Source: Ascidiella aspersa
Lineage: Eukaryota
Assembly (NCBI GenBank): GCA_963924565.1
Contig: OZ004611.1
Coordinates: 22,754,001 to 22,818,000 of the forward strand
Length of the DNA stretch: 64,000 nt
Direction of reading: 5' to 3'
In this document: positions 1,168 to 18,600 of the stretch, in pieces
Position numbering within the stretch: the stretch's first letter is position 1
How the letters are laid out: each line of letters opens with the position of its first letter
Translations under genes and position numbers: made by a program
The notes under the pieces: model-generated
The model's input: the letters and a program-made list of their open reading frames with translations, nothing else
Databases searched by the model: none
What the model was told of the DNA's origin: nothing

Positions 1168-4100
1168 AAATTCTGGATCCTGAGCATCCGCCGCCTCCAC
1201 CCAAGCAAAGAGACAACTCCGTGTCGCTCAAACTTCGCGGCACCGCTGCCTTCCTCAAGAGCTGGAACGCCGTGATCTTCATGTGCACTCCCGTGTAAGA
1301 TGTGGTTGCTTTTAAACTAAGACCACAATGTCTGTTCTGTTATGACTGTTTCCAGTGTTGTAAACCAGAAATTTTGAAATGACTTAATTAAGTCCAAGTC
1401 AAGTCATTTTGAATAAATGACAAGTCAAGTCCCAGTCAAGTCGTAATTAAATAAGAGCAAGTCAATTTCACGTCAAGTCCCTTTCTCTGCGGCGTAGTGC
1501 ACAAGTCATTGACTTAAGTCATTACAAAACTTCTAGAAAATGTTACTCATTTACCTGTGTCTATCTACATTAACTCAAGTGTTATGCTCCTCAGTCTTGT
1601 ATTACCAATATTAGGTATCTATCGCAAAAATAACGCGATTTTGCTCACCTTTTTGCCTACAACCGCCGATTAAAAATATCTTTACCAATTTTTTTTTTAA
1701 AGCGGACCATAACTGACTTGTCTGTTTTGTGTTTGTCGCGATCAGGTTTGAAAAGATGAGCGTGATGAAAGATGTGGGACTCTACATCAGCGATCTTAGT
1801 TTCCAAGACTCGTTGCAGATGTTCCTCATGGCAGGGCCGCAGCAGTCCGCTGAGTTAAAGATGGCTTTTGACATGGTAATTTAACTCTTTTCAACGTCTG
1901 GATCGGTTTGTTCGACTATTTTGCCAAACTTTGGTTAGTATTCACCGAATTTTGCCTAGCCCATGTTTTTCGTAACCTGCTTTGCTCATTTGCTAGACTT
2001 TTGCAACAATACATGCAGAGGTCAATGACCTGGTGTAATTCTTGACATTTTTAGGAGTCAATTACCTTGTGTAACCTTTTAACACCAGGTCATTGACCCC
2101 TAACAAATGTATAATACAATCAACACCGTTTCAGGAGCAAGCCAAGACGTCTAAGATGGAAGAGACACTGATGGAGTTAGAGCGTGAAGGCCAGAAGACA
2201 GACGCCCTTCTCTACTCCATGATACCAAAGGAAATCGCCAAGCGATTGAAGAAAAGAGATCACGGACACAACATAGCTGAGGTGAAGGATAAGCATTCTT
2301 TTCATTAGACTTGTTTTTGTAAAATTCGGGCATTTATTGGGTGTCAAGGATAAGCATTCTTTTCATTAGGCTTTTTTTTTGTAAAATTCGGGCATTTATT
2401 GTAACTTTTGCGCATAAAACAATTTCCTTGCTATATGACGCGTTTCTGTTTTTATTTAGTTAAGTTATTACTCATAATCGGCGATTAAGCTTAGGGTTAA
2501 ATTTTTGCCCTAATTATGACCTGACTTATTTTTTTAATATTCTTTTTCCGGCGTGCCACGGATAAACACGCTTAATGTCCGCTATTACGATTGCGTTGTT
2601 ACGCTGCTTTACCTACCACTCGTATAAAGACTTAACTGAAACCGAAAAAGTAGTTTAGAGCTCGTAGTTTGCTTTCTTTAACTTAAGAATGCTTATGTAT
2701 CACGGTTAGGAATACCACACCGTTGAACAGAAAAGTTAAATGTTTAAAAATATAGTGATCAAAACAATGCCACAAAAAAAATATTAGCACAAGTTATTAG
2801 ACGATTTTCAAGATATTCTGTCGAAAAGACGATCATTTATTATATTTGTGAACTTAACACGAAGAAGAGGCTGAAATAAATGTACTCTGTGCCGCTGTTC
2901 ATTTTTTTTTCTATTTTCCGTTTTTTTTATTTCAGATGTTTCCCGACGTCACGGTACTTTTCAGTGACGTGGTCGGTTTCACAAACATCTGCACTCGTAT
3001 CACTCCGATGGAAGTGGTCGCTCTCCTCAACACTATTTACACTGTCTTCGATTCGCTCAGTGAAAGGTATAAATGGAAATGGCTAACTGTACACGTTTTT
3101 TTCTTTGATGGGCAGGGATCCTTGTTGTTGAACAACATTTCGTTTATTTCAGTCCAAAGATTTTTTTTGTAAATGGCCGTTTTTGTGTAATTCTAAATAG
3201 AGGAACCAGGTGGCACTGTGTAAAGACTAATTGTATTGAATTCTCGACAAGCTTTCGCACAACCCAACAGGTCAAAGTATATAGGAAAACAATTAAAAAG
3301 CACGTAAAAGCACAAGTGCGAGTAAAAGGCGATAAGAATGGTGACGTCTAACATATCCATAGGCACATTCGGCACATTTCATGTATACTTTGACCTGATG
3401 AACCACGGTTATGCGAAAGCTTGTCGAGAATTCAATACAATTTATCTTTATACAGTGCCACCTGATTCCTCTATCTCTAATAATTCGTTCACTTAACCAG
3501 CTTGCTAAATTTAATTTAAATTATTCTAACCCAGTGTTTCTTAACCTTTTTTACTTGGTGGCGCACCTATAAAGACGTATAAAAACGTGGCGGCGCACCT
3601 TGCGAGCGAAGCAAGCGTGAAATTTTTAAGGTGTACCGATATTTCTCTTACATTGTCTTCTTTTTAATTTTAATGGGTTTTATAGTTGCATATCTTTAAA
3701 GGGACTTCCAGCCTTTGAGACTAAAAACGTTATTTTGTACATTAAAGTCGTATTCCGATTAATTTTGGACTTATTTCGACATGTTTTTTCCTTTCGTTCG
3801 CGGCGCACCTAGCAGCCTTCCATGGCGCACCGGTTGAGAAACGCTGTTCTAACCCCAAGACGCAAATAAAAAAATTATGTTAAACAGCGGCCAAAATACA
3901 ATGGCTGTTTTTTTGAAAGGCTAATTTGCTAAATACGCGAAATAACGCAGGAGAACCACGTTTATCTATAAAAAAATCAAATAATCATCCAGCTTATATT
4001 TTTAATTTCCCAGATACGCGGTGTTCAAGGTGGAGACCATAGGCGACGGCTACATGGCGGCGTCTGGCACTCCCGTGCGGACGAAGGAGCACGCACAGAG

Positions 4101-7100
4101 GATCTGCGACATGGCGCTAGAGATGCAGGCGGGCATTTGTCACGTGAAAGAGCCGTCCGGTGGAAACCGCATAAGGATTAGAATCGGTAAGTCAAATCAC
4201 ATGTACCCGGTCCTAAGCTGACTTGTTCACATTAAATTGTCAAATGGGTACACTCTGTACGGATCTGTAATGTAACTTGAAATAAATTGCATAGTCAAAA
4301 AGGTCGAATAGATCGACTTCATCTTGATTAAGACGTTTCGGTACAAGCTTGTATCATCTTCAGTTAATCTGACCGAGAAGTAATTCAAGCATCACTTATA
4401 AAAGGTGGGACGCAATTGTTATCAGTCTAAGTTTCTATAGTTAGAGCAATATTTAGCACCTTCAGATTGTCAAACTTTTGTGTGTTTTGTCCATTCTCGA
4501 AAACAAAACAGAACAAATTTCAGTTGCTTAGAAAAATTCTTAACAAAATTTGGTTACAATCGTCGCATTACATAGTTTCTAGGTAAATAGAGGTGCCTTT
4601 AATAAACAGCCTAGATTGTCCGATACATTGTGTTTTAGTTCCATACTGAAATCATATAATCGAAAAGGCAAACCGAACGCATGTACCCCTTAATACGAAA
4701 ACGGGTGAAAATAAAAATCGAAATTAAGGCATATATAAATCACTTTACCAACTGCGTAAATTCCATTTTTTTTTCTTGCAATAGTAGTTAAAATGACAAG
4801 ATGACAAATTGCTAAAAAAATCGACAAGATCGCAACTGCGGAATCCAATTACAGGCTTCCATTTTGCAAAAAGATATCAACCTTTTTTGTCGGAAAAATT
4901 CCACTTCAACAAACTTGTCCTTCAGTCCAACATTCGCGAACATTTCGAATCAGAAGCAGTGTGCTTTGCGCTTAAATCACCAGCAGCGTATTTTGTTCTT
5001 TTTATATTTTGTATTTTATTCCCTTAGGTATCCATTCTGGAGGCGTGGTTGCCGGCGTGGTGGGCCGCAAAATGGTGCGCTACTGTCTGTTTGGCGACAC
5101 TGTGAACACGGCCTCGCGCATGGAAAGCACGGGCAAGGGCGGCGAAATCCACATCAGCAAGACCGTACGAGATCAGCTGATCGGCACCGATGACTACATC
5201 GTCAAAGACCGCGGGATAATGTACTTCAAGGTAAAACCGGAAATCTGCTTGACTTTTGGGGCTATAGGGGAATGTCCGACAATGTAGAAAGGCGATGCCT
5301 CTCAAATCGCCGTATCGGTACTCGTTCGATACTCGGCTGGTATCGATTCATTTGTGCAATAAATACATGTTTTAAGATCCAGCATAGACTTTGCTACTTT
5401 AAAAGGTGAATTTTTGACACAAACACTAAAACCCGAAGATAAATAGTCCTACGAACTCAAATTTAGGCCTTCTGCATAAATTTTGCATATTTGACCATAG
5501 AGATGACGTCATTTAGTATCGCATTGGATCACGATAATCTTGGCCAATATTATCGGGTATCGGAATAACATACCTGGTATCAGACATTCCTACTTATGAC
5601 TAAGGTGTCGCCTGGGTTAAGGTCAAGTTTCGTGGCACACTTGCCAGCCCAGATTAGTTAGACGCAAATTTTTGGTCGGTTATATATACGAGAATTGGGA
5701 CCACAGAAAAAGTCCTGTGGGGCCCGCATGTCTTCCTACCACTTTTTCGGAAAAATTCATTACATTTATTGGAGATTAATTAACTATATATACTCTCTAT
5801 GTTCGGCGCTTTATAAATTCGTATTGTTTGCTCGTATATGACAAAATTAAAATGTGTTAAGGACCACACATTTTGAAATAATCAATTTGTTTTACTTAAA
5901 TTTCACCCTGCATGCAATATTTCAGTAAGCAAACTTGGGAATTTGTTTTACAAAGTAAACTATAAAATTTGCGCTTTTGGTCGCTTCAGGGTAAAGGTCA
6001 GATGAGGACTTACTGGCTTATCGGAAAAAAGGGAAAGTTCATTGCGATTCCCGGATCACAGTGAGTGAGATTTTCTTTTTTAAAGAATATGTTTTATATT
6101 AAACCTAAGCAAAACAATGATTCTTGAATTCTTACAACAAACTTAACTTTTGCGTCTGCCTCTACAAAAGTTAAAGCATACACTTTTTCGAGTATTTCGC
6201 GTTTTTTTTAATATATTAAAAACACTTAAGCCCATCACTCAAGTGCGACTCCTTTTGCTTTTGCGTTCCGCTTTCCAGTCTCTATTTTAAAAAGGTTTAT
6301 CGACGCGAGCAGCAACGCAGCCGGAATGGTGTCGACCAACAACCACTTGGTGGAAGGCACAGCGACAACCAGCAACAGCGAACCGCAAAAACCCAACAAC
6401 GACTCGAACGATATACTGGTAAACGACTCTACCTATTTGGATGGATAGCGAACTAACTTTAAAGCCAGGAAACTAACTTTAAAGCCAGGAAAGCGCATTG
6501 GCAGTGTTGTAATGATTTGACTTAAGTGCCCTTGAGTCATTATTTTTATTTCACTTCACTTAAGCATTTTGGGCAAAATGACTTGATTTGACTTAGGTCT
6601 TTTGGAGAAATGACTACACTTAAACTTTTTTGAAAAATAACTAGTTTAAGGTTTAAATTTGAAGGTTTTTTTTAACAAATGGCTTGACTGGTTTGCAACA
6701 CTTGCATTTGTAACTGGAAGCAGTGCGACTAAAAAATCATGATGTGTCCCCGAATTTTGAGGGTCTTAAGGTCAAATCTCTCCTTGTAAAACGAACGTTG
6801 AAAGCGAGTTTAGCATAAACGGTAATACCGCGTATGCAGTTGTATGTAAATTTTTAACTGTTTACAGCGAACATTACAGAAGGGATCAGGGTGCAAAAGT
6901 TACGAATAATTAAAAAAATCCGTTTATTTTGAATGTAACGTCCCTGTGTTGTATAGCTGGCTAGAAAAGGCACTTTAAAACTTGTATGCGCGCTAAAATA
7001 GGGCTAACCACAGGCGAATGCTGTCCTTTCGGTGAAAAGTGCAATTGAAAAAAAACTGACGCTTTTTACTTTTCAGAACTTCCGTGAAACCCTGGAAAAG

Positions 7101-15600: not shown

Positions 15601-18600
15601 CGTGTGTTTATAAAAATATTTGATGCGTAGCACTTTTTACGACATGCGATGCGTTCGGTTAATTTCTTGTTGTAGTTGAACAAAAGTACATCTTAAGCGA
15701 CTAAATGAATCATTTGGTTTTCAGTCTCTAAAGTTGAATATAATTTGTTACATATCAATAAATTTAAACCTTCAGTAGGACTAATTTTTTGGTTATCAAC
15801 TAATTTTTTGTTAAGGGCCCTCGGGCGAGCCAGTCGGACTAATGGGTGTCTATCAGTACTACTACATTTCATCAAACGTATTCTTGTTTAATGATTACAA
15901 CAAAATATTTGACCAGATAAATAAAATGTAAGCTTTTTAAGGTTTTATCAAAATTTTAACCACACCTACCGATTGTGTCAATGATTTCAGCCATTTTTTC
16001 CAGTTCTTCGGGGCAAATATCCGGGCAATGTGTAAAGCCGAAATACAATAGCAACCATTGGCCCATGAAGTCCTGTTTGCTGACAGTTTTGCCTGTTTAA
16101 AATATTTTTAGAATGTAAACAAAGTTGATTGTATTGCATTAAATTATTTCTTGTTTGACCCGTTCAACCAATTTTAAGTTTAAAGCAGTGGTTCTCAACC
16201 TTTTTTTCACCGCGTACCACCTCGAGCTTCTATGATCTTGTTACGTACCAACAAATTGTTGACAAACTCAACTTTACTCAAAATGTATATAGGATTGTTA
16301 ACAAGGGTGGATTAGACAATTAGTTAGCCCGGAAATCTCAAAACAAATGCGGCCCACCTCAAAAAAAAAAAAACATACTGCGTACAGCGTACCACCCAAA
16401 ATGACTTCGCGTACCACTAGTGGTACGCGTACCACAGGTTGAGAACCACTGGTTTAAAGGTTGTCAATTTGGTATCGTCAATAAATCGTCAAAATTTAAC
16501 AACATTTATTGACATGTCAATGGTTAATCCGGATACCAAAATTCATGAATTTTATTTCTTTGGAAATCAATTTACCTTCCAATATGAGAATGTTTTTTGG
16601 ATATTACTGTTTTGTGGACATTAATTTGTCCATGGCAATTATCAACTAATCAGAGTCATTTAACAGAAATACATTCTAGTTGTCTTAAATTAATGTTTTT
16701 ATGTCAAGCCTTATTTTATATTAATACTGTTACAAACATTATTCATGAAAGGTCATTGCATAATTAAGTCGTAATAAAAATGAATGTATCCAGTCTTCAC
16801 CAAAACAGGGTTGATTATTACCACATTTACAAAATCAAATTACTGATAAATAGTATAAATCAAAAACAGCTTCTCTGGTAATTGTAATTGTTAACCAACG
16901 TTTCGGCAACCTATACAAGCCGCCTTCGTCAGGGTGATTGACACTGAACATAGGTTTCATAGTTCAGTGTCAATCACCCTGATGAAGGCGGCTTGTATAG
17001 GTTGCCGAAACGTTGGTTAACAATTACAATTACCAGAGGAGCTGTTTTTGATTTATATTATCATGCCTGGTAGCAACACTTTATATACTGATAAATAGAT
17101 AGCATAAAACATTAGTGTAAAATTAAAATACCTGTGTGGTCAATAAGCTGATAATCATCAGCACCGATGTCAACTTTACTTAGTTGCTCTTCCCTTTGAA
17201 CAGCTTTTTCTTAGAAAAGAAATTGTGTTTAATATAATTATTGTCAGGTTCTACCATTATAAATTTTAATTATGTGAAATGTTTACATGGTTACTTACTA
17301 TCTTTTTTAATTTTGTTCGCACAAAAGTAGATTATTCCCCAAACTGCAAGAATTGCAGATATGATGGCGACTCTCTTTGCAATAGGCATACTGGGTTCTG
17401 CTTTCTTTGCTTCTTCAAACACTTTCTCTGCATTTTCATTTTTTGAGTGATTATCGCTATTTTTAGAGTCTGATAGGTTAAGTCCCGTAGTGGTGATTTG
17501 CCTTTGCTGAAACACTGTGCTTCCTGCAAAATGTTGGTTTGTGTCAGTTGCAAACACACTAAAAAGTCTTCCACAAGCACAACTGGGCGCAATGGGTGGC
17601 TTCCGATAAACCTGGAAAATGAAACTGTTGATTCACTTCACATTGATAAACTATTGACACACATATACCATATTGTAAAGTTTGGCAAAACCTTAAACCA
17701 CCAAAAATGGTTAATTCTTTAATGTAGGAGCAGTGTCTCAAGTAAAAAAATATCAAAAACACAATCCATGGCAAGCAAATTTGTGTTACAAACAAAAACT
17801 TAGTTTACCGCAATTCTATTAAAACAATTAATGACAACAGTTAATTTCAAACCAAGTTATTTCATCCAACTGGACTTGAGTCATACTTGAGTTATTTGTC
17901 CAAAGGATCTTTAAAAGTCAAAGTCAAGTTATCGTTCCAAAAAGACTTTTCAAGTCAAGTCAAGTCATTTAAAAACAGTGCCTTATGTGTATTTAAGTAA
18001 GTCATTACAACACTGCGCTGGTATAGTACTTTGCAAGTTTTAGAAAATCATGTTATTTCAGCTACGCAATTCCAAAGTAATTTTATTTTAGCTGTGCGAT
18101 TTTAAGATGCATAACCTGAACATAGATCTTGCCGTTTGCCAATATTTATCCCATCTGCCACATATACACAAAGCTTTACTTGGGCAAATTTATTGTAAAA
18201 CAGGAATTCTTAACAAGTGCAAAGACACAATTGGGAGTTGGAACTGTCAAAAGATAGGCAAAAATCAGTCATTTTCGGGGACTTTGTGAAATCAACTACA
18301 AAAAGTATATAAAAATATATTGTGCTGGCCTATAATCCAACCACAATGCAGATTATTTGGGTTAGGTTGTGGGTTAACTTTTGGGTAGGTTAAGCAATAT
18401 TATTAAATAATAAATACGGTATAACATTTCTTGGCCCACCCTCACCCAAACGCTAATTGACATCCTAACCCAAATACTGTGCGTTGCTTTAATAATTGCT
18501 TCAACACTGTGGCAGGATTCTAGACCATCATCAAATAGCTATGCACAAATAAGGGTAAAGTATTTTTAGGTGACTATTTATGTTGAAACAACAACAATTA

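Follow-up and report, generated by a model that had tools for sequence, protein, structure and literature searches.

Inverted pseudo-LTRs, one-sided tails, and minimal hammerheads on opposite strands have all already been published for Penelope-like elements (PLEs). Parts of PMC8557442, PMC3846280, and PMC2377424 describe truncated copies that are inverted and carry a tail on one side only. In EN+ PLEs with inverted pseudo-LTRs, exemplified by D. virilis Penelope and by Pen2/Pen2a of Adineta vaga, a 5'-truncated inverted copy lies beside a direct copy, a tail of 30–40 bp is confined to one side and encodes the start of the ORF, the target-site duplication (TSD) is ~10 bp, and reverse-transcriptase (RT) motifs precede a GIY-YIG domain (PMC3846280 and PMC8557442, both in part). 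According to sections of PMC4209133, minimal hammerheads of metazoan PLEs have an 8-bp helix II preceded by a bulged base, a helix I of 4–5 bp, and, instead of helix III, a palindrome; the same sections report opposite-strand pairs with a spacing of ~100–700 bp and cleavage that was undetectable for a single minimal hammerhead and low for dimers. For PAc, the Poseidon element of Anolis carolinensis, portions of PMC11167929 describe a PLE protein that cuts and extends both strands in vitro, using two start sites that lie on either side of the tail, an AT-rich target, a ribozyme that required the PLE protein, and a lack of RNA ends at the ribozyme cut site. Animal non-LTR retrozymes are short, non-coding elements with a PLE-related type I hammerhead, arranged in head-to-tail arrays (bioRxiv 10.64898/2026.07.22.740005, in part).

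Here, we analysed a 64,000-nucleotide window (the whole stretch of DNA examined) of contig OZ004611.1 of Ascidiella aspersa, where a hairpin at 16841–17098 represents a copy of a young PLE, truncated and inverted at its 5' end. A 13-bp TSD at 16841–16853, with edges ambiguous by 1–3 nt of microhomology with the element, is followed by an inverted, tail-less pseudo-LTR arm on the minus strand (16854–16949; family positions 29–124 counted from the 3' end), a 12-nt joint of filler sequence that has no match to the parent at that position (16950–16961), a 5'-truncated forward pseudo-LTR arm on the plus strand (16962–17057), a 28-nt plus-strand tail found on the right side alone (17058–17085), and the exact second copy of the TSD (17086–17098). 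The tail holds the start codon of the parent ORF (17063–17065) and its first 7–8 codons; beyond these, the 232-bp head-to-head element has no ORF and is non-coding. Of the 96 arm positions, 94 are complementary; the arms differ at 16872/17039 and 16928/16983, the latter corresponding to hammerhead position N7, which is T on the plus strand and C on the minus strand. Arm alignment thus confirmed the original prediction of 96-bp arms with two differences, one at N7, and the predicted 28-nt asymmetric tail, exact 13-bp duplication, and hammerhead-like core on each strand were likewise present. Unlike the EN+ PLEs named above, this copy consists of pseudo-LTR and tail only. It differs from the family majority at just 2 of 188 arm positions and 2 tail positions. 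A short-read contig from run X2, which may be the assembled sample, spans 16520–16892 without a difference, a stretch that takes in the TSD and the private base 16872.

The hairpin lies in the GT-AG intron (16093–17131, minus strand; 1,039 nt) of a SCO1-like gene, 46 nt from the splice donor measured from the element end and 33 nt measured from the TSD end. The proposed location in SCO1 stood, as two of the three exon pieces scanned match Pfam SCO1-SenC and one exon piece scored 99 bits on human SCO1 versus 85 bits on SCO2. Another gene of the SCO1-SenC family lies elsewhere on this contig (G000:C5:5676670-5678140); its Pfam score is higher, and its domain is split by fewer introns. The same SCO1 intron carries another small insertion (16179–16458) with 23-nt inverted ends 234 nt apart and flanking 8-bp direct repeats, which we take to resemble hAT-type MITEs. 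In a SCO1 exon, a C/T difference at 17416, seen in 13 of 27 RNA reads of run X13 and absent from X12 and X2, is probably an allele.

Multiple observations place the hairpin in a large family. A search of the 308.6-Mb genome with the right arm plus tail produced 1,530 first-look candidates, of which 40 were scored, and the 25-nt majority tail had 159 exact matches versus none for the reversed control, so the family is not a product of chance. DNA read depth was ~2,550 on the element end versus 1–8 in the flanks, which by depth arithmetic at ~6.3-fold coverage corresponds to ~400 copies at ≥90% identity. The copies have a common fixed end and a variable other end, and longer ones carry a single ORF with RT motifs and then a C-terminal GIY-YIG domain: one (L131) has 377 aa open from the RT motifs to GIY-YIG, and in another (L132) the same pseudo-LTR precedes the ORF, the tail supplies the ATG, and the frame stays open for 292 aa from that codon. 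Pfam matches on the copies themselves were weak and below cut-off (GIY-YIG, E 0.001; RVT_1, E 0.01–0.04), and none of the seven long loci examined was an intact full-length copy. Among 1,997 candidates, 112 relatives of the ORF reached E ≤ 1e-20, and two of three that were rescanned passed both the RVT_1 and GIY-YIG cut-offs. A PDB sequence search with the ORF returned no matches. The nearest named protein, from Phallusia mammillata, is 70% identical over half of the query, and the family may be unnamed. A piece of the RT had 150 matches ranging from 95% to 31% identity, some with open frames of more than 800 aa; many PLE families coexist in this genome, and some of them may be intact.

The assignment to PLEs thus draws on family membership, a fixed 3' end, variable 5' truncation, the TSD, a tail that is the ORF start, and the combination of RT and GIY-YIG. 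As in EN+ PLEs, the pseudo-LTR overlaps the ORF start, and truncation at the 5' end is accompanied by TSDs of variable length; the one-end tail is present but, at 25–31 nt, is slightly shorter than the published 30–40 bp. No zinc-finger-like cysteines were seen between the RT thumb and the endonuclease, which, by the description in parts of PMC8557442, points to the Penelope/Poseidon clade.

To characterize insertions, we started with the first 100 exact-tail matches out of 159, left out four of five tandem copies, and entered the remaining 96 plus the window copy; merging entries with identical 3' flanks yielded 85 independent insertions, a sample that favours young copies. Divergence from the majority had a median of 2.1% in 69 insertions, so that "young", as originally predicted for the hairpin, holds for the family. 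An inverted piece was present in 59 of the 85 insertions, although a few short ones may be chance, and a terminal inverted arm was present in 51, of which 39 start 25–31 nt from the 3' end. Forward arms ranged from 25 to more than 930 nt. In 33 of 59 cases, the inverted piece exceeded the forward arm in length, at most by 894 versus 129; in 18 it fell short of the forward arm, and in 8 the two were roughly equal. Adjacent exact TSDs of 9–16 bp were found in 40 insertions, 33 of them 11–14 bp and 16 exactly 13 bp, which is the mode and differs from the ~10 bp of the described EN+ PLEs; the other 45 lacked an adjacent exact TSD of at least 9 bp. AC precedes the TSD in 24 of 40 cases, a strong preference (background 20%), and the mirror GT follows it in 14 of 40, which is not significant (p 0.06). 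Among 55 joints, 26 had overlap, 25 had filler, and 4 had neither. The layout of the window copy is therefore the commonest in its family and no rarity.

Some repeated matches reflected spread of host DNA. One inverted insertion of 401 bp, with the same TSD and flanks, recurs on contigs C1–C4 within a ~2 kb repeated host unit (L037, L038, L039, L042, L046, L049, L060, L072, L091, L107, L108, and L061). This unit is tandem at 3.8 kb on C3, where the tail matches (L061/L062) proved to be 3.8-kb host units carrying a stub rather than full-length elements; the stub thus marks when this host repeat spread.

Both hammerhead motifs of the hairpin are minimal: helix III is missing, helix II has 8 bp, and helix I has 3 bp. 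In the plus-strand copy, which is in PLE sense (16976–17017), helix I is followed by the core (16979–16985; N7 = T, a minority base), a bulged A, helix II (16987–17006), GAAA (17007–17010), and a palindromic ACGU that replaces helix III, with a predicted cut at 17014/17015. The minus-strand copy, which is in SCO1 sense (16894–16935), has the family-majority C at N7. The conserved core, the long helix II of 8 bp with a 5' bulge, and the palindrome match the minimal PLE hammerheads in the sections of PMC4209133 cited above; unlike those, helix I here consists of three contiguous pairs and then a mismatch rather than 4–5 bp, the cut triplet is GUU, and the two cores lie only ~45 nt apart. At its gathering score, Rfam gave no match anywhere in the window. 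In PAc, by the portions of PMC11167929 cited, the ORF starts at ribozyme helix II, whereas the ATG here is 49 nt past the predicted cut.

Do the paired motifs reflect selection for a working ribozyme? The original prediction took the N7 difference as a sign that both cores had been kept valid. That argument is not supported, because two random differences in 96 positions leave the 12 invariant positions untouched with a probability of 0.76, and because core positions mutate like others. Across the family, 66 of 72 arms have C at N7 and 4 have T, further core positions vary too, and there is no sign of selection on the core. Decay at CpG as the cause of the C-to-T change at N7, which does fall on a CpG, was rejected, since CpG sites vary at 3.7% versus 3.0% elsewhere, no clear excess. 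The two hammerheads probably mirror each other only by double copying of the pseudo-LTR. Truncations also show no pile-up at the predicted ribozyme cut, 71 nt from the end, as only 1 of 85 forward arms stops at 70–72; this result agrees with the missing RNA ends at the cut site of the anole element in the available text of PMC11167929. Twenty of the 85 forward arms end at 54–69, in a stretch that is 88% AT. Three other candidate footprints were discarded. A seeming peak at 78 came from a single insertion within the repeated host unit (12 entries merged), and another at 73 was traced to a variant in the reference copy used for alignment. Run-off at a transcription start near 117–128, where the motif is presumably Inr-like, was suggested by 14 ends in that interval, double the rate at neighbouring positions (p 0.02), but the p value became 0.4 after allowing for window choice, and no RNA starts were listed there.

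Two further motifs of this kind occur elsewhere in the window. An older inverted repeat at 3197–3474 (98 nt, 86%) includes a motif resembling a minimal hammerhead at 3395 on the plus strand and probably represents the head-to-head stub of a different PLE family. At ~4320–4372 on the minus strand, a well-formed minimal hammerhead has a 6-bp helix I, a core at 4363, a palindromic helix III, and a GUC cut triplet; its sequence is unrelated to the hairpin in the SCO1 intron.

How did the hairpin form? In L1 twin priming, an inverted 5' part is flanked by one TSD and joints show microhomology or filler, features that resemble the PLE copies here, and the two parts are different stretches of one RNA. 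Unlike those of L1, the PLE arms cover the same stretch, which requires two templates or two pseudo-LTR copies. Both outer ends of the element are extended by sequence complementary to element RNA, from two fixed start sites. We propose that the GIY-YIG endonuclease would nick both strands of AT-rich DNA ~13 nt apart, that one 3' end would be extended from the start site at the tail end and the other from a second start ~26–29 nt inside, and that both extensions would be templated by RNA of the same source element. At the SCO1 locus, both cDNAs may have stopped at position 124 and then been joined with 12 nt of filler. Two end points that bracket the tail, an AT-rich target, and the lack of a cleavage footprint are properties in common with PAc as presented in portions of PMC11167929. 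Overall, we consider it highly probable that the window copy is a young PLE end fragment whose likely origin is twin priming at a staggered cut and which is likely inert within its SCO1 intron. Points that weigh against this reading include the 45 insertions that lack an adjacent exact TSD of at least 9 bp, the weak GT mirror after the TSD, and the absence of an intact element among the seven long loci.

The main competing account keeps the same PLE stub but has the hairpin arise by fold-back or self-priming, with integration afterward; copying would have used the first cDNA or, as argued in parts of PMC3846280 from junction palindromes, an antisense template. It would explain why both arms of the window copy stop at position 124, and near-symmetric ends are indeed more frequent than expected (8 of 59 versus 4.1; p 0.04), but seven of these eight symmetric cases turn within an 88% AT, self-complementary stretch. 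Fold-back also predicts that variants of the source are common to both arms, as we found: the arms agree in 31 of 34 comparisons at polymorphic sites versus 19.3 expected, although sites of one locus are not independent, they agree in 10 of 11 cases at the main subfamily site, and the arms of L002 and those of L020 have private variants in common. Gene conversion or one dominant source could produce such agreement as well. The sole exception (L015/L023; G000:C2:5625287-5625918) is a head-to-head pair in which both members have a tail, differ at the subfamily site, and lack a TSD. We found no arm-agreement count of this kind in the literature searched, which comprised parts of main texts and few subscription papers. 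Copying of the first cDNA cannot yield an inverted arm longer than the forward one, as seen in more than half of the pairs, unless a deletion came after, and later deletions at the centre of the palindrome could indeed make arms unequal. In addition, the fixed stop at 25–31 nt matches the second RT start seen in vitro in the available parts of PMC11167929. We therefore regard fold-back as rather unlikely and twin priming on RNA from the same source as the best reading, because the arms have subfamily variants in common, because the inverted arm is often the longer one, and because a PLE protein can cut and extend both strands from two starts that bracket the tail, as portions of PMC11167929 report. 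Explanations outside PLE biology merit almost no credence. The element is short, non-coding, and built on a long inverted repeat, as expected for a MITE or foldback DNA transposon or for an assembly artefact, but one end is fixed and one variable, TSDs range from 9 to 16 bp, and the sequence continues into RT and GIY-YIG, which supports the Penelope-like, target-primed origin originally favoured over a MITE; the symmetric fixed ends and fixed short TSDs of TIR DNA transposons were not seen in other copies. An assembly fold-back is refuted by the presence of the junction in short-read contigs and would give neither a TSD nor a one-sided tail. A non-LTR retrozyme, with its head-to-tail tandem units each bearing a hammerhead, was also rejected, as the element is a single head-to-head unit with its own TSD.

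An effect of the insertion on SCO1 is very unlikely. Such an effect could arise if the hairpin disturbed splicing, was edited or diced, or contained a hammerhead that cut the pre-mRNA, and a near-perfect 96-bp duplex close to the donor with one hammerhead in SCO1 sense gives this idea its appeal. In RNA-seq run X13 (~6% of the run; the animal may or may not carry the insertion), 14 reads join the exon at 17132 to the exon at 16092, exons have a one-strand depth of 13–37, and no reads fall in the unique intron bins at 16520–16839. In the predicted pre-mRNA fold, 10 of 11 core bases are paired at >0.98, the hammerhead fold has an energy of −11.5 versus −191.9 kcal/mol for the region, and the drawn hammerhead dimer has −21.3 versus −42.6 kcal/mol for the best co-fold. 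The antisense arm would be transcribed first and is predicted to pair with the sense hammerhead, which would need a partner molecule anyway, and splicing would therefore remove the intron intact. The absence of cleavage by monomeric minimal hammerheads (PMC4209133, in part), the protein requirement of the anole ribozyme (PMC11167929, in part), the lack of any sign of selection on the core, and the second SCO-family gene all argue in the same direction, and the original suggestion of a potential self-cleaving motif in the pre-mRNA of an essential gene is, as a meaningful one, not supported by the predicted pairing or by the behaviour of monomers. The idea of a Dicer or ADAR substrate is plausible but fits any 96-bp intronic hairpin; A>G and T>C counts were equal in RNA and DNA runs (5 and 8), in reads that pool hundreds of copies. 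No empty site was seen among 15 of 86 joints, at a DNA flank depth of 1–8 and with a second organism's run that covers one exon and repeat copies only.

The SCO1-intron locus itself is ordinary mobile DNA, one of many short intronic hairpins of a common sequence carried by this genome. The family is young and has hundreds of copies, most with readable joints and TSDs, which makes it a good natural data set for studying the origin of PLE inverted repeats and tails. One speculative extension of twin priming, which we think quite unlikely, is that a single complex holds two RNAs from the same locus and primes one per strand at a cut staggered by 13 nt, using the two fixed starts, with the palindromic, dimer-only hammerhead serving as a clamp and not as a cutter. 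If two RNAs of the same source were primed at once in this way, then the tail and the inversion would be explained, as might, possibly, the retention of a barely active ribozyme that works only as a dimer.
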